From positions 26,707 through 90,706 of the forward strand of contig JBEGIR010000004.1 of NCBI GenBank assembly GCA_040224245.1: 64,000 nt of DNA, given 5' to 3'. Positions 4,343 through 34,785 of the stretch are shown piece by piece. The notes under the pieces are model-generated. The model did no database searches. It saw only the letters and a list, made by a program, of their open reading frames with translations, and was not told the origin of the DNA. Each line of letters opens with the position of its first letter. The first letter of the stretch is position 1. Source of the stretch: Puniceicoccaceae bacterium. Its GTDB lineage: Bacteria; Verrucomicrobiota; Verrucomicrobiia; Opitutales; JAFGAQ01. Made by a program: the position numbers and the translations under genes.

Positions 4343-5200
4343 TCACTCAACCCATCGGCTGAGTGTCAGCACCAATACCGATTGGGTGTTGAAAAACGTG
4401 TGCATCCAAATGCTCGTACGCAGGTCCCCCGTATCCAGATAAATCTTGCCAAGAAGAAACCCGAGCACCGCGATCGGCAGAAACGAATCGAGGTTGAAAT
4501 GCAACAGGGCAAACAGCAACGAACTCACGATCAGCGCAACCCGGCATGAGGTCTGCCCGATCAGAAAGCGCAGCACAATGCCCCGAAACAATAGCTCCTC
4601 CAGCAGGGGAGCCGCCACGATTGCGAGCGTTGCCAATGCGAGAAATTTCCAAGGATCTTCGATACGCTGCATCAGGGTAACTGCTTCCTGTTCACCCGAA
4701 CTGATCCCCAATTGCTCATTGACCCAGATCGACAGCAGTGATGCCGCCCAGATCAATGGGAGGTAGCGCAACAATCGATCCAAGGCTATCAGCGAGGGGG
4801 ATGTTGACACACCTGAACGAAAAAAGCGCAGTTTGTAGGCATAGCGCGCACCGAGCAGAGTGAGCAGCATTGCCAGCTGGATGCTTGAGCTGTAGAGTAT
4901 CGTGTACCAACTCGTCTCCAGGCCGTCCATGGATTCAATCGCCGGATCAAATCCCGCCGGAAACACGAACCGTATGATGCCCATCGCAATCCCAAAATGC
5001 AGCATCACACCACACCACAGCACCAGCAGGAGGTCGAGCCACCCCGCGCTCCACGCATCTTGTGATGTCAACGGACTGGTTCCCGTCTCCGCAGGGCCAA
5101 CTCTCCAGCGTCTCAGCCAGAAATACAGGCAGCCGGCGAGCAGGGTCAGTCCGGCAACATTAGCGAGGGTCTCTGCGATATTGGAGGGAGAGTCATTCAT
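4343..5200 (-). CDS. CPBP (CAAX/Abi-type) intramembrane metalloprotease, about 285 aa
   Basis: Multi-TM protein with the three CPBP motifs EELLFRG, FALLH and WMHTFFN. ATG at 5200 forms an ATGA overlap with the upstream stop (5197-5199). The tracked start at 5215 is a GTG. Confidence 0.8.
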   Translation of the reverse strand: MNDSPSNIAETLANVAGLTLLAGCLYFWLRRWRVGPAETGTSPLTSQDAWSAGWLDLLLVLWCGVMLHFGIAMGIIRFVFPAGFDPAIESMDGLETSWYTILYSSSIQLAMLLTLLGARYAYKLRFFRSGVSTSPSLIALDRLLRYLPLIWAASLLSIWVNEQLGISSGEQEAVTLMQRIEDPWKFLALATLAIVAAPLLEELLFRGIVLRFLIGQTSCRVALIVSSLLFALLHFNLDSFLPIAVLGFLLGKIYLDTGDLRTSIWMHTFFNTQSVLVLTLSRWVE

Positions 5201-5664
5201 GGGTTGCGCCACCACTGAGGCCAGTTTGCGCTCGAATTGTCAAGTAACAGACGTTGACGGTCGCCATCGAGTTGGCAAATCTGCTTGCGAAACGGTAGAG
5301 CGCGTCGCACACGCGCGACCCCGCGATAAAGTAAATTCCTGACGCTGCGGGGAATCCAACGCAACCCATGCATCCATCTAACGGGTGCCCGCATGCCCGC
5401 GCACAGCTCCAGCACCGCATCGGAGCGTTCATAGATCTCATCAGGGCGCACCAGCAGGAGCGTCGTGGGTTCCGGTTCCCTGTGATTGGCGGACAACCAG
5501 CGCTGTCCGGCCTCGCTCTGTGAGGGCAGGAAGCCGGTATCGGGTTGACGTAACCACCGGATCGCCCAGCCCACGAACTGATTGCACATGCCACAGTCGC
5601 CGTCAAAGACCACGACCTGCCGAATCAATGGCCAGTTGGCCGGATCAGAGCGGGTCAATTTCAT
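5197..5664 (-). CDS. DCC-family (DUF393) thiol-disulfide oxidoreductase, 155 aa
   Basis: N-terminal signature VVVFDGDCGMCNQFV (DGxCxxC). ATG at 5664 overlaps the upstream TGA (5661-5663) as ATGA. Confidence 0.8.
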   Translation of the reverse strand: MKLTRSDPANWPLIRQVVVFDGDCGMCNQFVGWAIRWLRQPDTGFLPSQSEAGQRWLSANHREPEPTTLLLVRPDEIYERSDAVLELCAGMRAPVRWMHGLRWIPRSVRNLLYRGVARVRRALPFRKQICQLDGDRQRLLLDNSSANWPQWWRNP

Positions 5665-8081
5665 GACAGGTAGTGTTGGCGCACCAGTCGCAGTAATGCA
5701 AGAATTCCGATGGGTTTACCACCGCCCTTTCGAACCTGGTCACCGATTTCAAAGGCACTTCGCCAATGCTCCATCAACAATCGCCAGGCATGCCACACCC
5801 GGTATTTTGGATCATACATGTGCGCAGGTTCGGAGGTCAGCAGGTTTAACTCGAGGATCTGAATGGACTCTCCATTTGTCAGGGACGATTCATCCGGAAC
5901 TTTCAGATCAAAACGTCCCAGATAAAACCCATGCACAGCGTGACTGACCCGATCCAGAAACTGCCGCAAGGCGTCGCTGGTAAATTCGCAAGCATCCAGA
6001 AAAAGGGAACCGCGTGCATGAGTTCCGATTTCCACGAGCGGCACCCTTTCTCCGTCAGCCGGAATGCTGTAGATGGATTCGGCGTGCCGCTTCAAAAGGG
6101 AGGATGCATAACAGACCGCGCGTTCATCCTTGAGGATCAATCGCTCCAAGGTGCTCACTCCATCTCCCACGACTGAGGTGTAGAGCTTTCGGGTGATCGA
6201 AGGAATGCACCCTTCACTCTGCATTGGCAACCTCCGGTACAACACACCAAACTCAATCCCTGCGACATACTGCTGCACAATCAGGCGTTGGGACTGCCCG
6301 TGAAACGCATCGTCAAGATCGCTTTCCGAGCGCACAATGCACACTCCACGACCACGCTCACCGCGCTCAGGTTTGATTACGACGGGAAACTGCCATCCCT
6401 GTTCCTCCATCACTGCCCGCAATCGATGGACCGTGAGTTCATGGGGTTCCAACACGGCAAAAGGTGCCACCGGTACGCCCGCATCTGCAAGCTGACGCAG
6501 AATCTCAATTTTTGACTCTCCCAGCCATCCCCCACATGGAACCATGGGATTGCTAAGAGACGGAAGCGTCAGGCTGCGGTATCGCACTGCTAATCCCATA
6601 ATGTAAACGAAAACCGGCAAATACAGCAATTTGGAGGGCCAGAATTCCCATCGAATCACTCGCATCCACTTTCCATAGGCCAACCTTCGTCCCCGAAAGG
6701 TGAACAGGGGAATGCCTTGATGCAGGAGGGTCACCAGCGCGATCATCGCAGCCAGCATCATCCACCCCGTCCAGAACCCAAATTCATCGTACCAGTGCAG
6801 CATGCGTTCGCCCAGCCAGCTCGACAGACCGACTAACAGCGGAACCCACACGACAGCTGCACCGAGCAATACTGCCGACACGCGCCACCAGGGAGACTTG
6901 AGGATGCCCGCTGCCAGAAACACGGGCACCCGGGTGCCCGGCAGGAAGCGGCTTGCGATCAATACCCAAATGCCATTGCGCAAAAACCACCGCTCACTCG
7001 CGAGCAGGGTCTCCCTCGAGAGCATCCAACAAAAGGGTCGATGAATCAGGACTTTCTCCCCCAAAAACCGTCCCAATGCGTAAAGGGCGATGTCGCCGAA
7101 AAAAATCCCCAATACGCATCCAGCCACCGCAGGCAGAAAGGCCAGTGCTCCGTGGGAGACCAGCAACCCCGCACCCACACAGGCCAGGTCTTCGCTCATC
7201 AGGGTCGAGAGTGCGATCAAAACCACGGCTACCCACAGCGCCCGCCCCTGCCACAGTTCATGTCGCGCCGCCCACGTGTTTCGAATCTCTGCTCGCTCGT
7301 TTGGCGTGAGTCTGAGAACTTGGTGGGGTTCGGTTAGTTCCACCCGTGCAGTGAGATCCGGAACGATCCGTTCCTCATCGGCAGCGCGCATCAGACGGGA
7401 GTGAGGAATCCAGCGGTGAAGCACGCGACTCTGCTCCAGCTCCTGCCCCTGTGACACCGACAGGGAAACGGGCATCTGCAGGTCGAGCGTGTCGAGCAAG
7501 GATGGAACCGAACCACTGGCAACAATGGCTGCCGCCAATTTGGTCTCCACCAGTGATGGCGCCAGCGCCCACGCAAACGGAACCCCATGCCGCAGCATCC
7601 AGGCTATCCCACCCTGCAGACTTCGAAGACTGCGATCCAACAGGGGATGCCCAAGTGTTTCAAATGCAGGCAGCCCTTTTGCATCAATGAGAACCAAATG
7701 CGAACACCACTCTGGATGTTCATTGGCAAATGCGAGTGCGGTCATGCAGGCATAGGATTCTGCAACAATGACGACAGGGGCTTGACTGCTTGTGAAATCC
7801 ATCTCTGGCACCTTCAGCCCTCCAGTCATGCCCTCAAAGGTGCGTACAATCGCGTGGAAACGGGTTGCATCTTTCACCCAAACCCTGCCGTCATCACTAA
7901 ACCACACTGCGGCCTCAAACTGGCTCAGAAAACGCACCATGCTTTCGCTTGCCGGAGGTGAATCCTGCGTGTCACCAACGTGCAGATCATGCAGGCGGGC
8001 AGAGAGTGCCAGCAGCAGGAAGTAGATGAGTCCCGACACCAGCATCCACCAACGTTTTCGAGTCTGCATCATGTCGATCAT
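5661..8081 (-). CDS. Multi-domain membrane protein, 806 aa: N-terminal TM helix, alpha/beta-hydrolase-like region, DedA/VTT domain and C-terminal ATP-grasp ligase domain
   Basis: Hydrolase-like VVIVAESYACMTALAFANEHPEWCSHLVLID. DedA/VTT core GDIALYALGRFLG...IASRFLPGTRVPVFLAAG. ATP-grasp FPVVIKPERGERGRGV, QQYVAGIEFGV and ILELNLLTSEPAHMYD. ATG at 8081 overlaps the NRDE stop as ATGA; the tracked start at 8111 would overlap it by 34 nt. Confidence 0.75.
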   Translation of the reverse strand: MIDMMQTRKRWWMLVSGLIYFLLLALSARLHDLHVGDTQDSPPASESMVRFLSQFEAAVWFSDDGRVWVKDATRFHAIVRTFEGMTGGLKVPEMDFTSSQAPVVIVAESYACMTALAFANEHPEWCSHLVLIDAKGLPAFETLGHPLLDRSLRSLQGGIAWMLRHGVPFAWALAPSLVETKLAAAIVASGSVPSLLDTLDLQMPVSLSVSQGQELEQSRVLHRWIPHSRLMRAADEERIVPDLTARVELTEPHQVLRLTPNERAEIRNTWAARHELWQGRALWVAVVLIALSTLMSEDLACVGAGLLVSHGALAFLPAVAGCVLGIFFGDIALYALGRFLGEKVLIHRPFCWMLSRETLLASERWFLRNGIWVLIASRFLPGTRVPVFLAAGILKSPWWRVSAVLLGAAVVWVPLLVGLSSWLGERMLHWYDEFGFWTGWMMLAAMIALVTLLHQGIPLFTFRGRRLAYGKWMRVIRWEFWPSKLLYLPVFVYIMGLAVRYRSLTLPSLSNPMVPCGGWLGESKIEILRQLADAGVPVAPFAVLEPHELTVHRLRAVMEEQGWQFPVVIKPERGERGRGVCIVRSESDLDDAFHGQSQRLIVQQYVAGIEFGVLYRRLPMQSEGCIPSITRKLYTSVVGDGVSTLERLILKDERAVCYASSLLKRHAESIYSIPADGERVPLVEIGTHARGSLFLDACEFTSDALRQFLDRVSHAVHGFYLGRFDLKVPDESSLTNGESIQILELNLLTSEPAHMYDPKYRVWHAWRLLMEHWRSAFEIGDQVRKGGGKPIGILALLRLVRQHYLS

Positions 8082-8830
8082 TGGGTGGATTCCCGTTGCA
8101 AGCTCAGGCATAGGGGAGCTGAAAATTCGGGACCCTCTCCCATGGGTTCGCTGTAGGCAAAACGAACGTGTTGTGCGTCCACATCCACGCGCGAATGACT
8201 CACGGTGCGCGCATCCTCACGCACCATGTTGACCGATTCCGCACCCTGCCCCGGGATTCGGTTGCGGTGGAAATACTCCAGTTCACAAAGGCGTTGCTGC
8301 CTCTCGGTTGCTCTCACTTGTGCTGCAAAACTGGCCCGGCGCGCGCCAACAATTCGATCATTTTCGAAGGATGAACTGCTAACGGCCGCATCACACCTCC
8401 ACGAATGCTCATGCAGCTGCACTTCGGACCCATCCCAAAACAAGCTGTGCACTCCCTGAATCGGATCAAATTGAAAGAGATGAAACGCAGGATAGCGCTT
8501 GAGATCAAGTTCCTGAATTCGCATCTGAGTTTCGCTCCAGCCCGAGCTGTCGCGAAGCGTCATCACCAACCAGCCACGGCTTTCAAATTCACCTGAGCAA
8601 GCATCCGCTGAACCTACATCAAACCGATTCAGCAGGCAGGTGGTGACTCCCGCCGCATTAACCACCATCCAGGTTCCCCCTCTGGCACCGTCTCGCGCAT
8701 GGATGCAGCGCCGCTCATTCCCAGCTCCCGTGATTTGAATGGGCTCAGCGGGAGCACGTTCCCGGCGTTCGTCACGGTTGAACAATACCGTGTACTGATC
8801 GAGTGCGAATTCCCAGGTCAAGGTGCACAT
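8078..8830 (-). CDS. NRDE-family (TANGO2/DUF833-like) protein, 250 aa
   Basis: ATG at 8830 gives MCTLTW...VLFNRDE, the Met-Cys start and NRDE motif of the family. The tracked start at 8854 adds 8 residues and overlaps the DinB stop. Confidence 0.75.
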   Translation of the reverse strand: MCTLTWEFALDQYTVLFNRDERRERAPAEPIQITGAGNERRCIHARDGARGGTWMVVNAAGVTTCLLNRFDVGSADACSGEFESRGWLVMTLRDSSGWSETQMRIQELDLKRYPAFHLFQFDPIQGVHSLFWDGSEVQLHEHSWRCDAAVSSSSFENDRIVGARRASFAAQVRATERQQRLCELEYFHRNRIPGQGAESVNMVREDARTVSHSRVDVDAQHVRFAYSEPMGEGPEFSAPLCLSLQRESTQ

Positions 8831-8850
8831 GTTCAAGCATCCCCAATATT

Positions 8851-9387
8851 TCAAGCACCCGTATTGCGAGCAGCCCGATAGTGCAAGGTGGATGGTGCCA
8901 CCCCAAAAACCTCTGGAACTGTCACTCCCATGGCTTCACAATGCATCGCAATGATCGCAAAATGGTGCACGGTGTGACTGACAAGGAACTGCCATTCTCT
9001 GCCAACACTGGATAAACAGGAATCCGGCTGTTGGCTGTCTGCATTCATTCCCGTCTGCATGCAAACCCGCAAGGGCTGTTCCATTGAGGGGGTCTTCAGA
9101 TTGCGCAAGCGACTCAGGATCAAATCGATACAGTCTGCCGCATGTTGGACGGATTGTTCCTGCTCTGGGGAACGATTGCGGTGATCGTAGTCCACCATGT
9201 CCCGCTCATTTTCCAGACAATCCAGTAAACATTCGTAATGATCCGAAACATGACGCAAGTGTGCTCCGATGCCCGATTTGCCACCGGGAACCTGCACCTG
9301 CGAAAATCGCTCATCATCCAATGCAGCAAGCAGTGTTTTAGCAGATTCCAAAAAAGTGATATTGGCTTCAATCAAGGCAGGAGGCAT
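8851..9387 (-). CDS. DinB-superfamily (four-helix bundle, metal-binding) protein, 178 aa
   Basis: ATG at 9387. His-rich motifs HLRHVSDHYECLL and HTVHHFAIIAMH are typical of DinB/YfiT-like proteins. Confidence 0.7.
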   Translation of the reverse strand: MPPALIEANITFLESAKTLLAALDDERFSQVQVPGGKSGIGAHLRHVSDHYECLLDCLENERDMVDYDHRNRSPEQEQSVQHAADCIDLILSRLRNLKTPSMEQPLRVCMQTGMNADSQQPDSCLSSVGREWQFLVSHTVHHFAIIAMHCEAMGVTVPEVFGVAPSTLHYRAARNTGA

Positions 9388-9510: not shown

Positions 9511-9538
9511 AAAAAGCCGCCATGCAACGTCTGGCAGC
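9511..9538 (-). terminator. Rho-independent terminator candidate downstream of the DMT transporter gene
   Basis: On the minus strand: GCUGCCA-gacguugca-UGGCGGC (7 bp including one G-U) followed by UUUUU. It lies 6 nt after the stop at 9544. Confidence 0.55.
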
Positions 9539-10489: not shown

Positions 10490-11389
10490 TTATTTGCGCA
10501 TCCATCGACGAATCAACAGGAAAGTCAGTACGCAGCCCGCAAAGATCTGCGCCGAAAGCAGGATTGCGCTGCCACTGATCCCCTCGATCCACAGCAGGCG
10601 ATCAAGGGTGTCCCCAAACTCATCTTCGAGAATCGACCTCCCCCATTTCTCGGCGGTTTCGGGATCCAGTTCAAACAGTCCATGCACAGCCTCCACAAAC
10701 TCTATCGTCTGCATCGGCTCGTAACCAAGCCAGCCGATTTCGCTCAGATCCGGTGCAAATACCCGCAGTTCTGGAATGGTGGACACGGGACGCTGCTGCA
10801 AAGGTTCGCCATCCGGAAATATCTCGCCTGCACTCGATGATCCCTCGAGTTGCGGTGCTTCAAACCACAACAACACCAGAAAATCCTGCGCGTAATGGAC
10901 AAATTCGGGACTGCGAAAATGTCGCTCCCATTCCCGACAGGAAGAACAGTCCTCTGCACTCGAAATCACGACGAGCAATGGACGCTGCTCTTGAACGGCC
11001 ACTTCGCTTGCCTGCTTCCAATCGCTGTACCAAGACAGTCCGGTATCCGACTGTCTTGCCTCAGGGGCAGAAGTTGCGCCGCCCGATGACTCAGCACCAT
11101 GGTTTGTTTCGGACAAATTGCGCTGCCAGGAGCTTTCTCCAGATTGCCGGATGATCTGGTCAGCACTGCCATAAAAGCCTTCACTCAATCGCACCACCCG
11201 TCCATCCCTCACATGCACGCCACCCTGTGGATAGCTGTAGATCGTGGTCGTTCCCCGCAGGATTTCTGCTGTCGGCTCCCCCAGCTCCAAGCGCATTTTG
11301 CTGACGCTGTCACCCGGTTCCAGTCTGGCATAGCTGACACTTGCAGCACACAGAAATAGACTCAGAAACAGAAAAAAGACAGGTTTCAT
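10490..11389 (-). CDS. Exported, C-terminally membrane-anchored thioredoxin-fold protein with a CSSC (CxxC) motif, 299 aa
   Basis: Internal ATG at 11389 gives the signal peptide MKPVFFLFLSLFLCAASVSYA. Trx-like segment LLVVISSAEDCSSCREWERHF and C-terminal TM helix ILLSAQIFAGCVLTFLLI. The tracked 463-aa version runs antisense through the tauE gene. Confidence 0.55.
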   Translation of the reverse strand: MKPVFFLFLSLFLCAASVSYARLEPGDSVSKMRLELGEPTAEILRGTTTIYSYPQGGVHVRDGRVVRLSEGFYGSADQIIRQSGESSWQRNLSETNHGAESSGGATSAPEARQSDTGLSWYSDWKQASEVAVQEQRPLLVVISSAEDCSSCREWERHFRSPEFVHYAQDFLVLLWFEAPQLEGSSSAGEIFPDGEPLQQRPVSTIPELRVFAPDLSEIGWLGYEPMQTIEFVEAVHGLFELDPETAEKWGRSILEDEFGDTLDRLLWIEGISGSAILLSAQIFAGCVLTFLLIRRWMRK

Positions 11390-11485
11390 GATGCGTGGGG
11401 ACGAGATCAGACGTTCAGTCCAGCTATACCTGAAATTTTCAATCTTTCGAGTCGAAATCCCCCGGAAATTGCGAAGACTGCGAGC

Positions 11486-12250
11486 ATGATGCTCGGACTC
11501 GACCTGATGGATTGTGCAATTGGCATACTCGCGGCATTGCTGGTGGGACTGGGGAAAGGTGGACTTCCGGGTGCCGGAAACCTTTCTGTCATTCTCATGG
11601 CCATGATCTTCCCAAGCCGGGAATCGGTTGGCATTCTCTTGCCCATCCTCATCTGTGCCGATGTGGTGGCCGTAGCGGTCTATCATTCCCACACCCAGTG
11701 GACACACCTGTGGCGACTGCTTCCCTGGACCCTGCTCGGGGTGGTGGCAGGGGCTTTTGTTTTTCAAAACATGGACGACGCACTGCTGACACGCGTGATC
11801 GGTGCCATTTTGCTGCTCATGGTCGCACTGACACCCCTGCGCAAGTATTTCCAGCAACACCCGGATGAACTTCCCGGACAACGCCTGACCTTCAAGCAGC
11901 AGGCCTTCGTCGGATCGACAGGTGTGCTCGGAGGCGTCGCCACCATGGTGGCCAACGCAGCAGGCCCGGTCATCGGTATCTATCTGATGATGTCACGCCT
12001 TCCCAAATTTGCCTTCATCGGCACGGCAGCCTGGTTTTTCTTCATCATCAACCTGTGCAAGATGCCCATCCAGGTCGGCATTGGCAACATCACATGGGCG
12101 TCACTGAAGTTGAGTGCCGGATTTGGCGTTTTTGCCGTAGTCGCAGCCATGATCGCACCTCGCCTCATGAAGTGGGTGCCCCAGCACATTTTCAGCTTTC
12201 TGGTGTGGCTTTTCATTGTTGTCGCAGGGGTGAAAATGCTGTTGTTTTGA
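11486..12250 (+). CDS. TauE/SafE-family sulfite/anion exporter, 254 aa
   Basis: ATG at 11486. Polytopic membrane protein with the family-typical GLGKGGLPGAG and duplicated 4-TM halves. Confidence 0.85.
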   Translation: MMLGLDLMDCAIGILAALLVGLGKGGLPGAGNLSVILMAMIFPSRESVGILLPILICADVVAVAVYHSHTQWTHLWRLLPWTLLGVVAGAFVFQNMDDALLTRVIGAILLLMVALTPLRKYFQQHPDELPGQRLTFKQQAFVGSTGVLGGVATMVANAAGPVIGIYLMMSRLPKFAFIGTAAWFFFIINLCKMPIQVGIGNITWASLKLSAGFGVFAVVAAMIAPRLMKWVPQHIFSFLVWLFIVVAGVKMLLF

Positions 12251-16153: not shown

Positions 16154-17248
16154 TTACAACGGGATCTCGATCACAATCGATCCATATGAGACATCCCTAC
16201 GGGTTTCCGACCCGTTCGAAATCACATCCGCATGAATGTTTTCGAGCAGCGGACTTGAGAATACCAGTCCGACTCGCAAGGTGAAGCGATTTCGAATCTG
16301 ATAGGAAGTCGTGATCCCCAAACTGACTATCCCTGGCTTTCGCTCAACCTTTCGATCATCACTGGTCAACATGCTTCCATCATAGATGACCGAGTATGCA
16401 ATCCAATTTGCACCCAGCGACAGATCGAATTCGAGCGACTGACTCGATGCTCCCTCATCCAATGGAGCAAACCCTCCATCTGCAATGCCAACACCTGGTG
16501 GAGCGGGTTCGGGTGAGAATCCGACAGGTAAATTCCACCCCCAGCGCAAAGCGACACTTGTATCCAAGCCTGTCATCAAGTTCCCAAACTGTCCGCCCGA
16601 TGCGACCAGCAAAGACCCCGACCAATCATTCTGCCTTACTCCCCAACGCCACAACTTTCGTTTGTATTGAATCGCCAGGTTCAACAGTAACTCCGTCTCC
16701 CGCTGAGTATCCCAACCTTCAGGGCTTTGTCCCAAACCCAGTTTCGAATGAACGAAATCCTGAATGCGTCCACCTGCAGACTCATCTCCAAGCACACCTG
16801 CCGTTAATTGCAGAGCGCGTTGTTCTTCTTCGTTGAAAAACTGCCAGATCTTCGAAAGCGTCAGCGTGCTCCCATAAGGTAACTCCCCCTCCTCCCAGGT
16901 CTCCGCCTGAAGATCCCCCGGCGTCACCAGCAACTGACCCACAGCATAGCCTTCCCTGATCCACCCACTTTTCCGACTCCCGGCAACCCATCTCAGCGGC
17001 CAGTTGAATGCATTTCCGGATCCGAAATTCTCGCCATCTGCTGCCCTCAAATCATCGAAAAACTGGATGCTCAACCCACTCGTAAAATTGGAGTCCTCCT
17101 TGAGGAAGGCATCATTTCCGATTTCAACCCTCCAAAATCCTCCTGCTTCACCAGCTTCTTGATGGACCTCAGCTTGCGCTGGAGTGACAACCCCGCCAGA
17201 GAGCATGACGAATACCAGCAACTCGGTACGCACGAGCATGCTCAGCAT
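16154..17248 (-). CDS. LpxR-family (DUF2219) outer-membrane protein, putative lipid A 3'-O-deacylase
   Basis: Signal-like MLSMLVRTELLVFVMLSGGVVTPAQA begins at ATG 17248. Family-like segments VEIGNDAF...FTSGLSIQF and GGRIQDFVHSKLG...PEGWDTQRETELLLN. Confidence 0.6.
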   Translation of the reverse strand: MLSMLVRTELLVFVMLSGGVVTPAQAEVHQEAGEAGGFWRVEIGNDAFLKEDSNFTSGLSIQFFDDLRAADGENFGSGNAFNWPLRWVAGSRKSGWIREGYAVGQLLVTPGDLQAETWEEGELPYGSTLTLSKIWQFFNEEEQRALQLTAGVLGDESAGGRIQDFVHSKLGLGQSPEGWDTQRETELLLNLAIQYKRKLWRWGVRQNDWSGSLLVASGGQFGNLMTGLDTSVALRWGWNLPVGFSPEPAPPGVGIADGGFAPLDEGASSQSLEFDLSLGANWIAYSVIYDGSMLTSDDRKVERKPGIVSLGITTSYQIRNRFTLRVGLVFSSPLLENIHADVISNGSETRRDVSYGSIVIEIPL

Positions 17249-17413
17249 TCCCCGGATCGCTTGCACCCCAAAGCGTGCAAACCCAATGCCATTCTGAGTT
17301 TTCCGCAAAACGTGGGAAAAATGTATTCGACAAAAACGCATTCAAAATCGTGCGATGGCTATCATTCCATATTCGCTCCAGAACCGACCAGACAGGACGC
17401 AAGCAGAACAAGA

Positions 17414-18122: not shown

Positions 18123-19556
18123 TCAGAATATACCTGCCACCTCCGCATTTATGTCCTCTGCAGTAAACCCGCCTCCCAGGCTGCGATAGAGCGACACATT
18201 GCTGCGCTCCACCTGTCGAACAGACGCAAGCAGTGATTGTTTGCCGTCAACATAGGCACGCCTTGCTTCCAATAACTGGTAATAGTCCATCGATCCCGCA
18301 TCGAATCGAACCTGCGATATCCGCAAGACCTCTTCAAGTGCCTGCAATCGATTGCGGTTTGCCTGCAACACCTGCTCGCTTTCTGCCCGCTGTGTCAAGG
18401 CATCGGAAACCTCCCGAAATCCCTGTTGAATCGAACGTTCATACTGGGCTACCGCCATTTCACGCGACGCCTCGGAAGCGTCCCGGTTGGCAATCAGGCG
18501 CCCACCCTGGAAAAGTGGAATCCGGATGCGCGGCACAAAGCTCCAGACATCCGTTCCACTGGAGAACAGATCCGTGAGGTCACCACTGGCACTTCCGACT
18601 GCCCCCGTCAGAACAATGGAGGGAAAAAACGCCAGTCGGGCTGCTTCCAAATTCGCCTCAGCAGCGACCAGCGTCCATTCTGCGGCCCGGATATCGGGTC
18701 GCCGCAGTAACAATTCGGAGGGAAGACCTTCGGGAATCTGAAACGCACGTGTCACAGCCAGATCCAGCGTCATCCCCAACCCAGCAAGGTCGAGCGGTTG
18801 CCCGACAAGCAGAGTCAAGGCATTGAGCGAAGTGTTCATCGATGCCTTGTAATTCGCCACGCTGGCCGCAGCTTGCTCCATGACAGCGCGCGTCTGGCTG
18901 ATTTCGAGTGACGATGCTGTTCCAAACCGGATTCGTTCCTGCAGAATACCCATTTGTTCTTGATAGTTCTTCAGAGTCTCCTCTGCCAATGCCAGTGCTT
19001 CCGCATTATAGACGTAGTCAAGGTAGGCATCCGCCACTTCCGCCAGCAATGTCAGCCGAACCGTATGCTGTGCTTCTTCGGTTGCGAGATACTGGTGCAG
19101 TGCCTCCCGGCTCAGTTGTTTGACACGTCCGAACAGGTCAATCTCGAACTGTGCAAGACCCACCTCTACACGGTACGATTCCACGGATTCACCACCACCT
19201 CCACCGGATCGCGTCAATGATCCATCCACAGCGAAAAACGGATATTGATCCGCACGCTGGATGCGGTACATCGCCCGCGCTCGCTCCACATTGAGAATGG
19301 AAACCCGCAGATCCCGATTATTGGCCAACGCCATCTCCATGAGGTCTTTCAGTCCCGCGTGCTGGTAAAACGCTTCCCAATTGACCACGTTTTCCCAATC
19401 TGTGCCACCGTGCATGGAGGTTCCCTGAGGAACTTGCCACTGCGTTGAGACAACTGGAGTGGTCGATTCCACTGATTTCGGCGGCAGCGTAGCGCAACCA
19501 CTTAGTAAAATGATCGTTGCTCCCAACGATGCCCATTGAATAAAGGCCTTATGCAT
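18123..19556 (-). CDS. RND efflux outer-membrane factor lipoprotein (NodT/OprM family), 477 aa
   Basis: ATG at 19556 gives MHKAFIQWASLGATIILLSGC (lipobox), 2 nt after the RND pump stop. Two tandem OEP repeats are present. Confidence 0.9.
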   Translation of the reverse strand: MHKAFIQWASLGATIILLSGCATLPPKSVESTTPVVSTQWQVPQGTSMHGGTDWENVVNWEAFYQHAGLKDLMEMALANNRDLRVSILNVERARAMYRIQRADQYPFFAVDGSLTRSGGGGGESVESYRVEVGLAQFEIDLFGRVKQLSREALHQYLATEEAQHTVRLTLLAEVADAYLDYVYNAEALALAEETLKNYQEQMGILQERIRFGTASSLEISQTRAVMEQAAASVANYKASMNTSLNALTLLVGQPLDLAGLGMTLDLAVTRAFQIPEGLPSELLLRRPDIRAAEWTLVAAEANLEAARLAFFPSIVLTGAVGSASGDLTDLFSSGTDVWSFVPRIRIPLFQGGRLIANRDASEASREMAVAQYERSIQQGFREVSDALTQRAESEQVLQANRNRLQALEEVLRISQVRFDAGSMDYYQLLEARRAYVDGKQSLLASVRQVERSNVSLYRSLGGGFTAEDINAEVAGIF

Positions 19557-22500
19557 GAGTTCCTTGTGGTTTTCTCCGTATGAAGAGACGTTCAATCACA
19601 TAAAAGAATAGGGGCACGAGAAAGATACCCAGTGTCGTGCCCACAATCATCCCACCAAGCACTCCAAATCCAATGGCGTTCTGCGCACCCGACCCAGCAC
19701 CATCGGCCATCGCAAGCGGGACAACCCCAAATCCAAATGCGAGCGAGGTCATCAGGATGGGTCGCAAACGATCCCGCACTGCTGCCAGAGTGGCCTCCCG
19801 CAATCGCATGCCCTGTTTGAGATTGAGCGTTGCAAATTCAACGATCAAAATCGCATTTTTGCTGGTGAGGCCCACTGTCGTGAGCATGGCAACCTGAAAA
19901 TAGATGTCCCGCTCCAGGCCTGACAGAACCGCTGCCAGCAGAGACCCCAACACTCCCAGCGGAGCCGCCATGATCACGGCGGTAGGGATGCTCCAACTCT
20001 CGTAAAGCGCTGCCAGTGCAAGGAATACAATCACCAGCGACAGCAAATACAGCCCCGCCGTTTGATTCCCAGCCTGACGCTCTTGATAGGAAGTCGTCGT
20101 CCACTCAATTCCAAAACCCTGTGGAAGCATTTTCGCAAGGTTTTCGATCTCATCCATCGCTTGTCCCGAACTCACTCCGGGTGCGCCCTGGCCCTGAATG
20201 TTGACCGCTGCAACACCGTTGTAGCGCTCCAGCCGCGGAGACCCGTAAGTCCAATGGGTCTGTGCAAACGCGGCAAAAGGCACCATTTCCCCAGCCGCAT
20301 TTTTGACACTCCATTCGAGAAAATCCTCTTCCTGCATTCGGAAGGGAGCAGCTGACTGCAGGATCACTTTCTTCACGCGCCCATTGTCGATGAAATCATC
20401 GATGTAACGGCCGCCCCATGCGACCCCAAGCGTGTTGTTGACTTCCGCCACGTTGAGTTGATGAGCCACCGCCTTCCGCGTGTCGACCTCCAGCTGCAGT
20501 TGCGGTGCATCCTCCATACCGTTGGGTCGCACATTGGCCAGAAGCGGATTTTGCGAAGCCATGTACAGAAGCTGGTTCCTTGCATCCATCAGTGCCCGAT
20601 GCCCTAGCCCTGCATTGTCCTTGAGGTAGAAGTCAAAGCCTGTCGAATTGCCCAGCTCCATGATGGGTGGAGGTGCAAAAGCAAAGACCATGGCTTCCTT
20701 GATTCCCATGAACGCAGCACTAGCCCTTCCCACAATTGCAGAAACGTGTTTTTCAGGTTCTTTGCGTTCAGACCAATCTTTCAGATCCACAAACGCCATG
20801 CCGCTATTCTGACCTGATCCCGCAAAACTAAATCCCTGCGCAAGGAAGATATTTCGAATCACATCACTCTCATGATTCATGAGGTAGTGCTCCATTTTTT
20901 TCACCACCTCCGTGGTATTCTCTTCCGTCGAACCAGTTGGCCCCATGATCATTGCAAAAAAGCTTCCTTGGTCTTCGTCGGGCAGAAAGCCTGTCGGAAC
21001 GCGGAGGAAGGCAAAGACCATCAATCCAACGATGACTGCATACGCCATCATTCCCCGGATACGACGGGAGGTTATGGCATCAACCACCCGCTGGTAACGG
21101 GAGTTTGCTGCATCAAAACTACGGTTGAACCAGCCAAAGAATCCCTTCTCACGAATATGGTGTCCTTTCTCAATCTGCTTGAGCATCGTCGCGCACAGAG
21201 CAGGCGTAAACACGATGGCCACGATGACCGAAAGCGTCATTGATGAAACAATGGTGATCGAAAATTGACGATAAATCACTCCTGGTGCTCCCGCCATGAA
21301 GGCCATCGGCAAAAAGACAGCAGAGATCACAACACCGATTCCGATCAAGGCACCCGTTATTTGATCCATTGATTTTCGCGCTGCTTCTTTGGGGGTCAGA
21401 CCCTCCTCAGACATGAGGCGTTCCACGTTTTCCACCACGACAATCGCGTCATCCACCAAAAGACCGATCGCCAGCACCATGGCAAACATCGTAAGCATGT
21501 TGATCGAAAACCCAAATGCCGCCAACACCCCGAAGGTTCCCAGCAACACCACCGGAATCGCAAGGGTTGGAATCAGGGTGGCCCGCCAGTTTTGGAGGAA
21601 CAGAAACATCACCAGAAACACCAATAGGATCGCTTCGAGCAATGTCTTCACCACTCCTTTGATCGCCACCTTGACAAAGGGAGTGGTATCAAAGGTTTTG
21701 GAAACCTGCAGCCCAGATGGAAGGTATTGCTGCTCTTGCTTCATGAATGCTTCCACCTTCTTTGCCGTATTCAGCGCATTTGCCCCTGTTGCGAGAGAAA
21801 TCGCCACACCCGTCGCTGCCTTGCCGTTGTAGCGGCTTCTCATGGCATGACTTTCTTTTCCCAGCTCCACCTCTGCAATGTCACCCAGTGTCAGGCTCGA
21901 ACCATCTGCCAGACTCGAAACAATGATTTCGCGGAACTGATCTGCTGTCTGAAGACGGCCACGGGTGTTTACCGTGAAGTTGATCTGTTGTCCCTCGACC
22001 AGCGGACTGCCTCCCAACGCCCCAATCGCTACCTGCTGATTCTGCGACTGAATCGCTGCCATAACCTCACTCACCGATAACTTGTAGGCTTCGAGCAACT
22101 TGGGGTTTAGCCATATCCTCATGGCATATTGCGAGTTGAATACCTGAACCGAACCCACTCCTTCGATGCGCCCGATAGCCTCTTTGAGATTCGAGGAAAC
22201 ATAGTCCCCAATCTCACCATCACTCATGCTCCCATCCTCGGAGTAGAATGCGATCACCATCAGAAAGCTATCATTGCCCTTATTCACGGTGACTCCTTGC
22301 TGCTGCACACTCAAAGGCAGCAGTGGCATCGCCGCCTGCAGTTTGTTTTGCACCTGCACCTGGGCAATGTCCGCATCGGTGCCAGTTTCAAAGGTGAGTG
22401 TGATTTGGGCTGATCCATTGGAGGAGCTGTTCGAAGACAAATAAATCAGCCCATCCAGTCCCGTAAGATTTTGCTCGATGATCTGCGTTACCGAGTTCTC

Positions 22501-22671
22501 GATCACACTGGCAGAAGCGCCCGGATAAGCTGCCTGAATCGTCACCGACGGCGGTGCGATTTGCGGATACTGTGAAATGGGAAGGGTGACCATGGACAGT
22601 CCCCCTGCGATCATGATGATCAGTGCAATGACCCACGCAAAAATGGGCCTGTCGATAAAAAACCGTGCCAT
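19549..22671 (-). CDS. RND multidrug efflux permease (HAE1, AcrB/MexB-like), 1040 aa
   Basis: N-terminus MARFFIDRPIFAWVIALIIM. 12-TM architecture with two large periplasmic loops and conserved TM4 segment AIGLLVDDAIVVVEN. Confidence 0.95.
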   Translation of the reverse strand: MARFFIDRPIFAWVIALIIMIAGGLSMVTLPISQYPQIAPPSVTIQAAYPGASASVIENSVTQIIEQNLTGLDGLIYLSSNSSSNGSAQITLTFETGTDADIAQVQVQNKLQAAMPLLPLSVQQQGVTVNKGNDSFLMVIAFYSEDGSMSDGEIGDYVSSNLKEAIGRIEGVGSVQVFNSQYAMRIWLNPKLLEAYKLSVSEVMAAIQSQNQQVAIGALGGSPLVEGQQINFTVNTRGRLQTADQFREIIVSSLADGSSLTLGDIAEVELGKESHAMRSRYNGKAATGVAISLATGANALNTAKKVEAFMKQEQQYLPSGLQVSKTFDTTPFVKVAIKGVVKTLLEAILLVFLVMFLFLQNWRATLIPTLAIPVVLLGTFGVLAAFGFSINMLTMFAMVLAIGLLVDDAIVVVENVERLMSEEGLTPKEAARKSMDQITGALIGIGVVISAVFLPMAFMAGAPGVIYRQFSITIVSSMTLSVIVAIVFTPALCATMLKQIEKGHHIREKGFFGWFNRSFDAANSRYQRVVDAITSRRIRGMMAYAVIVGLMVFAFLRVPTGFLPDEDQGSFFAMIMGPTGSTEENTTEVVKKMEHYLMNHESDVIRNIFLAQGFSFAGSGQNSGMAFVDLKDWSERKEPEKHVSAIVGRASAAFMGIKEAMVFAFAPPPIMELGNSTGFDFYLKDNAGLGHRALMDARNQLLYMASQNPLLANVRPNGMEDAPQLQLEVDTRKAVAHQLNVAEVNNTLGVAWGGRYIDDFIDNGRVKKVILQSAAPFRMQEEDFLEWSVKNAAGEMVPFAAFAQTHWTYGSPRLERYNGVAAVNIQGQGAPGVSSGQAMDEIENLAKMLPQGFGIEWTTTSYQERQAGNQTAGLYLLSLVIVFLALAALYESWSIPTAVIMAAPLGVLGSLLAAVLSGLERDIYFQVAMLTTVGLTSKNAILIVEFATLNLKQGMRLREATLAAVRDRLRPILMTSLAFGFGVVPLAMADGAGSGAQNAIGFGVLGGMIVGTTLGIFLVPLFFYVIERLFIRRKPQGTHA

Positions 22672-22680
22672 ACTCGCTCC

Positions 22681-23811
22681 TTATTGCGGGTTCGAATTCG
22701 ATGAAGATTCAACAGCTGGAGCACCTGGACGAACCCACTGCATCCCACCGACAATCACCCGAGTCCCTGCTTCGAGTCCACTGCCAACGATCCAGTCATT
22801 GTCGTGGCTTCCTTCCAGTGTTACTTCACGGCTTTCAACCTTGCCATCATCATTCAGGATGAGCACTGAGGTGGTGCCCGCTTCACTTCGCTGCACAGCT
22901 TTCTGCGGCACCAGGATCGCATTTTCTTTGACCGCAAGATTTACCCGTGCCTGCAAAAACATACCCGGTAGAAGAATGTGGTCAGGGTTCTCCACTCTCA
23001 CCCGTAGCAATGAGCTTCCTGTTACCGGATCAACTGTCGTTTCCGAATACAGAACTTCGCCCGGCTGCCTGAGCGAACGCCCATCTTCCAAAGTCAGCTT
23101 CACTGGGTGCCGAATCGCCTGTTCAAGGGTTCCTTCACGAATCCGTGCCTGCAGTGTAGTCCACTCACGACTGGCCATCCTCAAGTTCACATAAACGGGA
23201 TCGAGCTGCCTCACCACTGCAAGCGCTGTACCCTGACCTGCCATCACAAGTGCCCCGCGAGTGACATCGGACTTTCCAATAATGCCTGCGATAGGAGACT
23301 CGATCCGTGTGTATCCCAGGTTCACTTCACTGGCAGCGGCAGCAGCCTCCGCAACCTGCACTTCAGCCTCGGCACTGAGAAAAGCAGCCTCCGCATCATC
23401 GAAGGCCTGTTGACTGATCGCAGTGGCCTCTACCAGAGCCGAAGCCCGTTCGTAAGTTTTGTAGGCGAGTTTTGCAGACACCTGCGCACGGTTAAGCGTT
23501 GCAAGGTTTCGCTGGTGCTCGGCCTCAAACATGGCGTCATCCAGGACGTAGAGCTGCTGTCCCTCCGTCACTGCCGAACCTTCCTCAAAGAGCACCTCGC
23601 GAATGATTCCACTGACTTGGGGGCGAACCTCTGCTTCCGATACCAAATCCACCCGCCCCACAAGGTCGCGGGTCAGCACTATCGATTCGGGTTGAACCCG
23701 TACGGTAGACACTTCTGGAGGAGGGAGTTCATGCGTTGTTTCCGAATGCTTGCTACAGCCCATCAGGCTCAGAACAATCAGGATCGCCAGGAAATTTGAT
23801 TTCATCTTCAT
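22681..23811 (-). CDS. RND efflux periplasmic adaptor (AcrA/MexA family), about 376 aa
   Basis: ATG at 23811 gives the lipoprotein signal MKMKSNFLAILIVLSLMGC. Has the coiled-coil hairpin and barrel-sandwich pattern, and sits 9 nt upstream of the pump gene. Confidence 0.9.
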   Translation of the reverse strand: MKMKSNFLAILIVLSLMGCSKHSETTHELPPPEVSTVRVQPESIVLTRDLVGRVDLVSEAEVRPQVSGIIREVLFEEGSAVTEGQQLYVLDDAMFEAEHQRNLATLNRAQVSAKLAYKTYERASALVEATAISQQAFDDAEAAFLSAEAEVQVAEAAAAASEVNLGYTRIESPIAGIIGKSDVTRGALVMAGQGTALAVVRQLDPVYVNLRMASREWTTLQARIREGTLEQAIRHPVKLTLEDGRSLRQPGEVLYSETTVDPVTGSSLLRVRVENPDHILLPGMFLQARVNLAVKENAILVPQKAVQRSEAGTTSVLILNDDGKVESREVTLEGSHDNDWIVGSGLEAGTRVIVGGMQWVRPGAPAVESSSNSNPQ

Positions 23812-23871
23812 TACTTTGAATTGTTGATCCACCGAAAATGACGGAGCAAAATGATCCGTCAATAAAAATGG

Positions 23872-31000: not shown

Positions 31001-31630
31001 GTGACTCGACGGGAGAGTTCAGCTCGAATGAAATCGGACCCCTGTTCCTGTGTTCCACTGCTATCCCGACTCAGGGAAGCAACCCGCCCCATGCACGACC
31101 GCCTGGAGCACAATCACCGTATGGCGCAACTGCTCTCACCGGACCTGACACTCGATCAGTATGGCGAGGTATTGCAACGCTTTCATGCGCTGATTGATCC
31201 ATTCGAGAATCACCTGTGCAACTATGAATCCGATTGGGATCGGCTCGGATATCCGGCTCTGAATCGAACAAAAACCAGTCGTTTGCTTCGAGATCTCGAT
31301 TGGCTTGGCATTCAGCCGCTTTCGACCGCTGAGATTCCGGATGATGCAGTGTTGGCCTGTCACTGCTTTCCTGCTCTGCTCGGGTCGCTCTATGTGATCG
31401 AAGGCTCGTCGATGGGAGGAAGGGTGATCACACGCCACCTTCAAAAACACCTGAACATTCAACCCGATTCAGGCGGAGCCTATTTCTTCGGAGACGGGCC
31501 GCAAACCCACCGGCATTGGCGTACATTTCAGAACATGCTCGAGAACTACAGTTCGTTGGATTATGATACCGATGCAACCGTCGCGGCAGCCTGCGATGCA
31601 TTTTCCACCTTCGACAGAATGCTTCAATGA
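31001..31630 (+). CDS. bphO: Biliverdin-producing heme oxygenase (BphO-type)
   Basis: N-terminal helix LLSRLREATRPMHDRLEH with the proximal-His context. The stop overlaps the bphP start as ATGA (31627-31630). The tracked start is GTG at 31001; an in-frame ATG lies at 31028. Confidence 0.75.
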   Translation: MTRRESSARMKSDPCSCVPLLSRLREATRPMHDRLEHNHRMAQLLSPDLTLDQYGEVLQRFHALIDPFENHLCNYESDWDRLGYPALNRTKTSRLLRDLDWLGIQPLSTAEIPDDAVLACHCFPALLGSLYVIEGSSMGGRVITRHLQKHLNIQPDSGGAYFFGDGPQTHRHWRTFQNMLENYSSLDYDTDATVAAACDAFSTFDRMLQ

Positions 31631-34600: not shown

Positions 34601-34785
34601 AGATTCGCGGGAACGAGGCCCAAAAAGGGCTGCCAAGGGTTCCCATCATCGCGCTCACTGCAGAGGCCGGCACCGAAAATCAGGAACGTGCCATCGCAGC
34701 TGGCATGGACGCTCACCTGCCAAAACCCGTCAGGTTGAGAGATTTGAAGCTGATGCTGAAACGATTCGATAACTCAGACAACTGA
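31627..34785 (+). CDS. bphP: Bacteriophytochrome hybrid histidine kinase, 1052 aa (PAS-GAF-PHY, HisKA-HATPase, receiver-like domain, C-terminal REC)
   Basis: Cys17 (TGT 31675-31677) in [22 protein letters not shown] motifs [15 protein letters not shown] and [14 protein letters not shown] tongue WAGDP...[11 protein letters not shown]-box [17 protein letters not shown]-boxes DTGIGM and [20 protein letters not shown]...[13 protein letters not shown]. Confidence 0.9.

Follow-up and report, generated by a model that had tools for sequence, protein, structure and literature searches.

The closest described relatives of the system reported here are the OlsBA, OlsF and OlsHI pathways of ornithine-lipid synthesis, the TANGO2 proteins and the DedA membrane proteins. 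In the OlsHI pathway, the α/β-hydrolase OlsI acts as an O-acyltransferase on lyso-ornithine lipid; further chemistry on such lipids includes the ATP-dependent transfer of taurine to the ornithine-lipid carboxyl (cerilipin), for which the gene is unknown, and Ser-Gly and Orn-Ser-Gly head groups, for which the extension enzyme is unnamed (PMC12971839). The same 2026 review makes no mention of DinB, DedA or a flippase, and discusses no aminolipid transporter. TANGO2, the loss of which causes a severe human metabolic disorder, is disputed in function, being variously regarded as a heme chaperone, an acyl-CoA binder and an N-terminal nucleophile (Ntn) hydrolase. The paper on the human structure put the protein forward as a Cys-Ntn hydrolase whose large pocket could take a lipid, and called the substrate unknown, probably a lipid-like conjugate above 500 Da (PMC13044924), and a heme-trafficking role has been claimed for a bacterial homolog (Shewanella HtpA) and for eukaryotic TANGO2 (PMC10470608). 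Beyond the undecaprenyl-phosphate flippases, DedA proteins have no defined cargo, and a survey of ~6,000 genomes found DedA fusions only with rhodanese, PAP2 and pyridine-nucleotide-disulphide oxidoreductase (Todor et al. preprint). Here we describe a five-gene operon on the minus strand (positions 4343-9387) of a 64-kb stretch of DNA from a Puniceicoccaceae bacterium, hereafter the window, in which the TANGO2 and DedA families meet. Three of its genes, encoding a DinB-fold protein, a TANGO2-like protein and a fusion of α/β-hydrolase-like, DedA and ATP-grasp domains, probably constitute an accessory module in the metabolism of acyloxyacyl aminolipids of the ornithine-lipid type. This reading rests on gene linkage, on the folds and on the conservation of catalytic residues; the reaction steps are inferred from them, and the specific chemistry that we propose is accordingly put forward much more tentatively.

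Neighbourhoods of the conserved core

In the window, the core runs from a DinB-fold metalloprotein of 178 aa (8851-9387, minus strand) through a TANGO2/NRDE-family, Cys-Ntn hydrolase-like protein of 250 aa that starts Met-Cys (8078-8830, minus strand) to a DedA-ATP-grasp fusion of 806 aa (5661-8081, minus strand). Relatives of the fusion were counted by scanning one genome per species, which gives a lower bound, and were carried by at least 591 species-level genomes from Acidobacteriota, Balneolales/Rhodothermia, Verrucomicrobiota, Planctomycetota, Calditrichota, Desulfobacterota and others. They take the form either of proteins of 800-900 aa (α/β-hydrolase, DedA and ATP-grasp) or of ~540 aa without the hydrolase, as in Gemmata obscuriglobus (CP042911, around 1.29-1.31 Mb). 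This species, Fodinibius salsisoli and Pelagicoccus are carriers available in culture. In most lineages the core genes are co-oriented and often translationally coupled with OlsB/OlsA-type genes, or adjoin OlsF, an association that spans several phyla and emerges in both query directions. When open reading frames (ORFs) were called in 86 loci (compared loci from genomes and metagenomes bear L numbers below) and grouped by BLASTP with no labels assigned beforehand, the four clusters of partners that ranked largest were those of DinB-like, ~270-aa Acetyltransf_5, ~264-aa Acyltransferase and TANGO2 proteins, nearly always upstream on the same strand. Hidden Markov models (HMMs) of the clusters were then used for counting on 65 non-redundant loci with at least 3.5 kb upstream, where the same-strand partners of the fusion were DinB in 38, OlsB-like in 36, PlsC/OlsA-like in 33, TANGO2 in 23, and DCC and CPBP in 4 each. 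One or more of DinB, OlsB, PlsC and TANGO2 stood in 58 of the 65, and of the 36 cases with OlsB, 33 also had the OlsA type. With roughly one aminolipid synthase gene per genome, so frequent an adjacency would arise by chance with negligible probability.

Gene order is also recurrent. The fullest arrangement, OlsB>OlsA(PlsC)>DinB>TANGO2>fusion, was found in Blastocatellia (L035), Calditrichaceae (L038), Acidobacteriota (L049) and L074, while Balneolaceae have OlsB>PlsC>DinB>fusion, Opitutaceae (DinB>)TANGO2>fusion and Gemmata DinB>TANGO2>DedA-ligase with overlapping junctions; an OlsF-type bifunctional gene is adjacent instead in L005, L007, L028 and L079. Junctions overlap in L074, L035, L001 and L003, and in L074 the PlsC/DinB, DinB/TANGO2 and TANGO2/fusion junctions each overlap by 4 nt. 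For a reciprocal test, the TANGO2-like protein was searched against metagenome contigs, an independent collection, and six-frame translations were annotated with the same HMMs: among 26 loci with at least 2.5 kb on each side, DinB was present in 20, OlsB in 20 and the fusion in 15, with TANGO2 alone in 5, and many again read OlsB>PlsC>DinB>TANGO2>fusion. Forms lacking the ligase, DedA or TANGO2 all exist, and the association with the synthase survives in them. Four loci (L094, L103, L131 and L157) have a ligase-less DinB>TANGO2>OlsB>PlsC order with gaps of ~50-100 nt, and L172 has DinB>TANGO2>stand-alone ligase (352 aa, without DedA)>OlsB>PlsC, so the synthase link holds separately for the DinB-TANGO2 pair and for the ligase.

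The partners themselves are, on profile matches, OlsBA/OlsF-type aminolipid synthases. Their Pfam domains are Acetyltransf_5, Acyltransferase and Acyltransf_2; the Acetyltransf_5 proteins align end to end with their best match, OlsB (L-ornithine Nα-acyltransferase, NF052554/5), at E 1e-37 to 1e-41, the best match of the Acyltransferase proteins is OlsA (lyso-ornithine-lipid O-acyltransferase, NF052553) at ~1e-41, and a 669-aa neighbour in L005 matches OlsF (NF052615) at 395 bits. The OlsB-like partners score 127-143 bits, short of the equivalog cut-offs of 320-350; membership is thus of the same family without fixing the head-group amino acid, the specificity of which is not established by scores below the cut-offs.

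These sub-threshold scores, which extend to the OlsA partners, leave some room for a different product, an N-acyl amino acid or lipopeptide natural product built by a FeeM/OlsB-like synthase, put through a 'ligate-modify-deprotect' sequence by ATP-grasp, DinB and TANGO2, and exported by DedA. The logic would be that of the γ-glutamyl handle in ergothioneine biosynthesis, where the combination of a DinB fold, a Cys-Ntn amidohydrolase and an ATP-dependent ligase is familiar from EgtB, EgtC and EgtA; EgtB-type structures do occur among the weak fold matches of our DinB protein, and the OlsB-like partner in L172 has a weak match to FeeM. The OlsA type, however, which makes the diacyl, membrane-lipid form, stands with OlsB in nearly every case, and neighbours of the MlaE, AsmA and OlsC families favour membrane lipids. 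DinB-TANGO2 pairs that travel with OlsBA but no ligase further argue against an obligate ligate/deprotect cycle, and we consider such a product improbable.

Several further genes were noted around the module. An MlaE-family permease gene follows the fusion directly on the same strand in five Bacteroidota/Rhodothermia-type loci (L002:10643-11407, L033, L034, L051 and L063), connecting the module with the Mla machinery for lipid trafficking; a 1,211-aa AsmA-like gene adjoins the OlsF-like gene in L005; and an Asp/Arg β-hydroxylase-family gene (PF05118, E 2e-50), of the family of LpxO and of OlsC, the hydroxylase of ornithine lipids, lies ~1.3 kb downstream of the operon in L172 (9973-10872). Directly upstream of OlsB, on the same strand, several loci (L002:3907-5786, L014:4621-6526, L056:5288-7160, L073:6051-7100, and also L086 and L007) encode a protein of ~347 aa with ferric-reductase-like transmembrane (TM) and Rieske [2Fe-2S] domains, usually followed by a ~257-277-aa protein without a Pfam match; conceivably, the two act as an aminolipid oxygenase or desaturase pair not yet described. 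In six Acidobacteriota-type loci (L047:2183-2854, L067:7502-8233, L068:12181-12942, L069, L074:12240-12980 and L075) the fusion is followed on the same strand by c24, a ~246-aa protein without a Pfam match, which may be a further lineage-specific component, as DCC and CPBP may be in the clade of the window. Metagenome-assembled genomes labelled 'Heliomicrobium sp.' or 'Heliobacteriaceae' (L039, L046, L047, L062, L066, L074 and L075) match the Acidobacteriota/Blastocatellia order OlsB>PlsC>DinB>TANGO2>fusion>c24, and these bin labels may be unreliable.

Core proteins and their proposed chemistry

The TANGO2-like protein matched TANGO2 (PF05742) with a Pfam score of 38.5 against a gathering threshold of 22.6, the aligned part comprising residues 1-137, the N-terminal half only, and a precomputed PF05742 match was present on 68 of 69 homologs. 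Operon-linked homologs all start MCT, with M1-C2-T3 and R19-D20-E21 invariant and N18 nearly so (n=27), and N68, S153 and R164 are also invariant. A single-sequence phmmer search against the Protein Data Bank (PDB) matched nothing meaningful; the family profile matched human TANGO2 (8sv7, E 2.9e-6), with NRDE and the equivalent of human N75 aligned. The AlphaFold2 (AF2) model (predicted local distance difference test, pLDDT, 92.4) likewise placed 8sv7 first in Foldseek (E 1.3e-10, TM-score 0.69), then 9bwa and 3gvz (the NRDE-family protein CV2077), with penicillin V acylases, bile-salt hydrolases and isopenicillin-N acyltransferase next in order, the last three being Cys-Ntn enzymes whose reaction is the cleavage or transfer of an N-acyl amide bond. 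On the strength of the model, Cys2 is the predicted Ntn nucleophile of an amidase-type αββα fold and not a redox thiol. In the C-terminal half, which the HMM does not align, the invariant S152-S154 and R164 lie at roughly the positions of human Asn157 and Lys166 (residues for the oxyanion hole and for Cys positioning) and may be their equivalents.

Were the TANGO2 homolog instead a heme chaperone like HtpA, with its membrane neighbours aiding heme or cytochrome handling, it would accord with the published claim for the Shewanella and eukaryotic proteins (PMC10470608). Yet no gene for ccm, heme or cytochrome functions turns up repeatedly near the module, the subfamily keeps its Ntn catalytic residues without exception, and the 2026 crystal-structure paper reports heme binding to TANGO2 as non-specific (PMC13044924), which together make a role in heme trafficking very unlikely here.

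The DinB-fold protein is recognised by DinB_2 (PF12867) at 26.8 against a gathering threshold of 24.8, and its AF2 model is a confident four-helix bundle (pLDDT 92.7), the best Foldseek matches of which (3gor, 6iz2, 2qe9 and 1rxq, TM-scores 0.6-0.79) are uncharacterised, YfiT-type 'putative metal-dependent hydrolases'. Invariant residues in 27-33 homologs are H46, H138, H141, H142, R45, R70, R130 and E131. The His triad H46/H138/H142 is the generic predicted metal-binding site of the superfamily, and the modelled fold is uninformative as to substrate. Its weak fold matches include BstA, the mycothiol-dependent isomerase and EgtB-type structures.

The first-pass annotation of this DNA had suggested a module that builds, translocates and trims an amino-acyl- or peptide-modified lipid or, as a second branch, serves a thiol-containing metabolite, and had named thiol chemistry as a theme of the operon. 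The lipid branch is strongly supported by the OlsB/OlsA/OlsF context. The second branch, which would cast DinB as an S-transferase, DCC as an oxidoreductase and the NRDE Cys in a redox or thioester role, acting on a thiol envelope metabolite or in a thiol-dependent lipid modification, fares differently. Bacillithiol and mycothiol transferases do belong to the DinB-fold enzymes, the weak matches take in BstA and the mycothiol-dependent isomerase, a DCC protein with a CxxC motif is present, and a thioredoxin-like gene is syntenic upstream. Against this, DCC is confined to one clade (4/65 loci); the strongest DinB matches are of the YfiT type, thiol transferases appearing only at E > 0.01, and its His triad is a generic one; the NRDE Cys stands at the invariant position 2 of an Ntn fold, as the predicted nucleophile, with N-acyl amidases as the best structural neighbours; and genes for the biosynthesis of low-molecular-weight thiols are not a recurrent feature of the loci. 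The thiol theme thus finds no support in the comparison, and we regard a thiol-based function as quite unlikely.

The fusion, encoded on the minus strand throughout, begins with a TM helix preceded by a K/R-rich segment (residues 12-30, 7992-8048; from hydropathy and charge analysis), and continues with a degenerate α/β-hydrolase-like domain (residues ~35-270, 7272-7979; from alignment to relatives in which the Abhydrolase domain is clear), the DedA/VTT membrane domain (residues ~276-455, 6717-7256; PF09335), a conserved aromatic/hydrophobic helix, RWEFWP..., which opens the ligase module and has basic residues on either side (6582-6656), and the ATP-grasp ligase domain (residues ~505-806, 5664-6569; from profile matches in the PDB and motifs). 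All full-length homologs have 3-7 K/R in the 15 residues preceding the first TM helix, and by the positive-inside rule the predicted topology is N-in, with the hydrolase domain periplasmic and the ligase cytoplasmic. In the window copy the hydrolase-like domain has no Pfam match (Abhydrolase), AESYA replaces the G-x-S-x-G elbow, and the HG and catalytic His motifs are lacking; in close relatives the nucleophile is replaced by D, G or R. The motifs HGSP, S-M-G-G and GGH persist in relatives at 35-39% identity, and a profile of the whole fusion family was swamped in the PDB by α/β-hydrolases, with many esterases at E 1e-12. From these motifs, the N-terminal domain appears to be a true α/β-hydrolase in distant relatives and degenerate, catalytically dead, in the clade of the window. 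By a crude regular-expression search, to be read qualitatively, the triad is also decayed in Balneolaceae and Opitutaceae, and its loss in several lineages shows no clear correlation with the presence of TANGO2.

The DedA domain scores 42.2 with VTT/DedA (PF09335; residues 305-419) against a gathering threshold of 33.9, and has S296-E297-D298 and R378-x-x-P-G-x-R384 invariant. Its best NCBIfam match is UptA (NF052604; 51.2 bits, E 1.5e-13); filing the domain as UptA was rejected, the score lying far below the equivalog cut-off of 250 bits. The match nevertheless gives substance to a role with undecaprenyl phosphate (C55-P) in envelope-glycan or peptidoglycan synthesis, in which DedA would flip a C55-P intermediate, the ligase would add an amino acid, and TANGO2 and the hydrolase would trim. 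The two invariant Arg of the SRFLPGTR motif resemble the phosphate-binding pair of COG0586 DedAs, the ligase also matches Ddl, two or three Opitutales loci have genes for GDP-fucose synthesis upstream, and the module has Pal or TolQ-type genes nearby in the clade of the window and in L025. The Arg pair could, however, equally bind a lipid carboxylate, and no mur, peptidoglycan or glycosyltransferase family recurs in the neighbourhood clusters, whereas OlsB, OlsA and OlsF do. Given these, and the shortfall in the UptA score, a C55-P role seems to us rather improbable.

Conservation of W478, E479, F480, W481 and P482 in the RWEFWP helix is complete or almost complete, and the helix may be an interfacial anchor that places the ligase at the cytoplasmic membrane face. 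Pfam scores for the ATP-grasp domain are marginal (Dala_Dala_lig_C 24.6 against 24; RimK 23.4 against 21), the RimK model matches 9 of 12 family members, and neither Pfam nor NCBIfam holds a curated model dedicated to this family. Its profile finds, as nearest solved relatives at E 5e-7 to 5e-4, cyanophycin synthetase (7txv/7lg5, E 5e-7), glutathione synthase (7ta5), GshAB (3ln6), a RimK-type protein (8fxh) and Ddl. Enzymes of this kind activate a carboxylate and add the amine of an amino acid. K570, E744-L745-N746 and GDG(x)STL are invariant in the ligase, with catalytic and Mg roles assigned by analogy. The family amounts to 1684 clusters (E<=1e-30) among the 1.84 billion representatives of the library searched, and occurs in three architectures, of ~850, 540 and 360 aa.

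Taken together, these features suggest the following scheme for the aminolipid module. OlsBA, OlsF or OlsHI would make an N-(acyloxyacyl)-amino acid with a free head-group carboxylate, which the ATP-grasp domain, held at the cytoplasmic face by DedA and the interfacial helix, would activate as an acyl-phosphate and join to an amine (an amino acid, taurine or similar), so that the head group is extended or amidated; this step is proposed because of the chemistry of the nearest relatives, cyanophycin synthetase, RimK and GshB/GshAB. DedA would move the substrate or product across the inner membrane. The N-terminal Cys of TANGO2 would hydrolyse or transfer an N-acyl or amide bond of the lipid, in turnover, editing or acyl remodelling, and DinB would carry out a metal-dependent step with TANGO2, its most constant neighbour. 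Where its triad is intact, the α/β-hydrolase domain, predicted to be periplasmic, may de-esterify or re-acylate an acyl chain, or remove the modification at the outer face. It is possible, and we offer it as a speculation, that TANGO2-family proteins in general are N-acyl-amino-acid or aminolipid amidases or transacylases that form with DinB an ancient and widespread aminolipid-remodelling system, and that the DedA-ATP-grasp protein is the first aminolipid head-group ligase/flippase, an ATP-driven counterpart of MprF and the enzyme type behind orphan ornithine-lipid amidation and peptide-extended aminolipids.

A number of observations weigh against assigning the module to aminolipid metabolism. 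No OlsB/OlsA-type gene was found in the 64 kb of the window with the partner-cluster HMMs, nor any GH3/OlsH- or OlsF-like protein among its ORFs of at least 380 aa, and most Opitutales-type loci have no aminolipid synthase gene within 10 kb; with the synthase absent from the 64 kb, the lipid link of the window operon is by homology only. Homologues of OlsF are reported in Puniceicoccales and Balneolales, and of OlsH in Opitutales and Gemmatales (PMC12971839), so the organism of the window and Gemmata plausibly make aminolipids from genes elsewhere. Seven of the 65 fusion loci and five of the 26 TANGO2 loci lack any partner, and the OlsB, OlsA and OlsF partners all fall below equivalog cut-offs. 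A stand-alone ligase of 372 aa (L170:6001-7119, L171:3844-4962) sits in an unrelated, conserved context of an extracytoplasmic function (ECF) sigma factor, two small ORFs, an Ldh_1_N-like protein and CNNM/CBS transporters, and ligases of this family may also be put to use apart from the aminolipid operon. The DedA domain has UptA as its best match and keeps an Arg pair thought to bind phosphate, and a bacterial TANGO2 homolog has been assigned to heme trafficking (PMC10470608). The predicted topology of the fusion is uncertain, DedA having re-entrant loops and the orientation of the termini differing among published DedA subfamilies; the hydrolase domain, having apparently decayed in several lineages, is dispensable; and the chemistry is inference throughout.

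The operon in the window

Downstream of the core, the operon continues on the minus strand with a DCC1-like/DUF393 CxxC protein of 155 aa (5197-5664; PF04134, 59.2 against 27.8 bits; CxxC in DGDCGMC) and a CPBP/Rce1-like intramembrane glutamic protease of 285 aa (4343-5200; PF02517, 70.9 against 22.4 bits; motifs EELLFRG, FALLH and HTFFN), both lineage-specific additions; all named NCBIfam CPBP equivalogs score the latter far below their cut-offs. The first-pass annotation had drawn this as five minus-strand ORFs, head to tail over 4343-9387, and its description held when the sequence was read again: the coordinates agree, the three ATGA start/stop overlaps (8081/8078, 5664/5661 and 5200/5197) are present, as are the 20-nt gap from the DinB stop (8851) to the NRDE start (8830) and the 155-nt gap between the operon end and the downstream Pal/OmpA gene, and the domain calls for all five ORFs are borne out by Pfam and NCBIfam. 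On a contig 98-99% identical to the window (L168), a separate gene caller gives 178/253/806/155/285 aa for the same five genes. The view in the first-pass annotation that no established role exists for any of the families is out of date in the case of DedA, which includes undecaprenyl-phosphate flippases and lipid scramblases, and of TANGO2, which has a crystal structure and a Cys-Ntn proposal. The operon is thus a real, coupled five-gene unit, of which only three genes form the conserved core: co-localisation in other genomes extends across phyla for DinB, TANGO2 and the fusion, and does not for DCC and CPBP.

How these two belong to the unit is less clear. DCC, CPBP and Pal follow the fusion only in an Opitutales/Puniceicoccaceae clade (the window with L168, L008, L009 and L010; 4/65 loci), and it is quite conceivable that the window unit is not one system, DinB-TANGO2-fusion being the module and DCC and CPBP unrelated but co-transcribed. 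Among the compared loci the two genes are absent from all other lineages, and unrelated flanks (Trx, EamA, Pal and YjbR) are also syntenic in this clade, where conservation may reflect nothing but shared ancestry. On the other hand, 4-nt ATGA overlaps join fusion to DCC and DCC to CPBP, the former kept in a relative at 49% identity (L001), and the arrival of DCC and CPBP coincides with decay or loss of the hydrolase in the same clade, a coincidence in a single lineage (n = 1). We regard the window copy as a derived, Opitutales/Puniceicoccaceae version of the module, with no linked synthase, a dead hydrolase, and DCC and CPBP added downstream; the two additions may be substitutes for the lost hydrolase or unrelated passengers. 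Neighbours of the Opitutales-type loci (GDP-fucose synthesis, sulfatase, TolQ/ExbB and DUF4136) are uninformative.

The limits of the unit are drawn less firmly upstream. A terminator had been proposed at 9511-9538, and a hairpin with a T-run does exist after the EamA gene (9516-9538, minus strand; 7-bp stem and U5). Its stability does not exceed that of shuffled sequence (z = +0.47), and the region has no excess of terminator-like sites (10 found against 8.8 expected), which makes it weak evidence for an operon boundary; nor do the intergenic regions fold better than shuffles, and an Rfam scan of the window returned no RNA elements. The upstream boundary is uncertain, since the Trx-EamA genes are also syntenic in relatives at ~49% identity (L001/L008, L009). 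In this upstream part, a mechanically called ORF of 463 aa (10490-11881, minus strand) is over-extended, L168 having there (7442-8341) a secreted, Thioredoxin_7-like protein of 299 aa.

Elsewhere in the window, a homolog of the outer-membrane, LpxR-family lipid A 3'-O-deacylase (PF09982, E 3e-43) is encoded at 16154-17341 (minus strand), ~7 kb from the operon, and adjoins a TetR gene and a resistance-nodulation-division (RND) efflux operon (OEP 18123-19595, AcrB-type 19549-22671, membrane-fusion protein 22681-23862). A 1,052-aa bacteriophytochrome hybrid histidine kinase, with PAS_2-GAF-PHY-HisKA-HATPase-two receiver domains, lies at 31627-34785 (plus strand), and a 420-aa ORF with no Pfam match at E<=1e-5 lies at 56873-58135 (minus strand), adjoining a GAF-GAF histidine kinase (58267-59979) and a GlnD-like uridylyltransferase (60095-62923).

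Relation to known systems

In the literature searched, nothing relevant linked TANGO2 to ornithine lipids or aminolipids or described a DedA-ATP-grasp fusion, and we found no prior description of an aminolipid gene cluster with these four undescribed accessory families. The setting of a bacterial TANGO2 between N- and O-acyltransferases suggests a class of substrate and offers simple bacterial assay systems; if the proposal is true, human TANGO2 gains a testable substrate class, the N-acyl amides of amino acids or amines. A ligase-fused DedA in a lipid-synthesis operon is a strong lead on cargo, and the fusion is a candidate for orphan head-group amidation, for di- and tripeptide head groups and for aminolipid translocation. 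With the module spread over so many species, any lipid it makes may be environmentally abundant and a useful biomarker.

Set beside human TANGO2 (8sv7), the TANGO2-like protein belongs to the same family and has the same αββα fold, with Cys2, NRDE and Asn (N68, human N75) conserved; it differs in sharing only 15-18% identity and in a C-terminal half that cannot be aligned by sequence. Its fold is common to the Cys-Ntn amidases and acyltransferases (bile-salt hydrolase, penicillin V acylase, acid ceramidase, NAAA and isopenicillin-N acyltransferase), and its place in an aminolipid operon is a context not reported before for TANGO2. Like UptA, YghB/YqjA, TMEM41B and VMP1, the DedA domain has conserved acidic residues close to its first re-entrant helix and two Arg in its second, and it is unlike these flippases and scramblases in being joined to an ATP-grasp ligase and usually to an α/β-hydrolase as well. 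The ligase has the motifs KP-x-G-x-RG, GDG-x-ST-L and E-L-N in common with the cyanophycin synthetase G domain, RimK and glutathione synthetase, but forms its own family (~1,700 clusters at 50% identity), always with the RWEFWP start and usually fused to the membrane part.

Compared with the pathways of ornithine-lipid synthesis, the module has the gene types of OlsBA, OlsF and OlsHI as its commonest operon neighbours and, like the modifiers OlsC, OlsD, OlsE and OlsG, would act on a pre-formed aminolipid, whereas none of the described Ols synthases or modifiers is a DinB, TANGO2, DedA or ATP-grasp protein. The orphan chemistry of the cerilipin transferase (Gluconobacter cerinus) and of the Ser-Gly extension enzymes is the reaction proposed for the ligase; no Gluconobacter or Bacteroidota member of the ligase family was among the best 80 genome loci, in which no search was aimed at them. 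The nearest parallel in overall logic is MprF, an aminoacyl-phosphatidylglycerol synthase and flippase with the partner hydrolases AcvB/VirJ, PA0919 and AhyD. Both would pair a cytoplasmic head-group enzyme, fused to a translocase, with an α/β-fold hydrolase removing the modification outside. The two are not homologous, MprF having a DUF2156/GNAT-type synthase that uses aminoacyl-tRNA and its own flippase fold, whereas the module described here would draw on ATP through ATP-grasp and on DedA as translocase, and would act on a lipid that is probably an aminolipid rather than phosphatidylglycerol.

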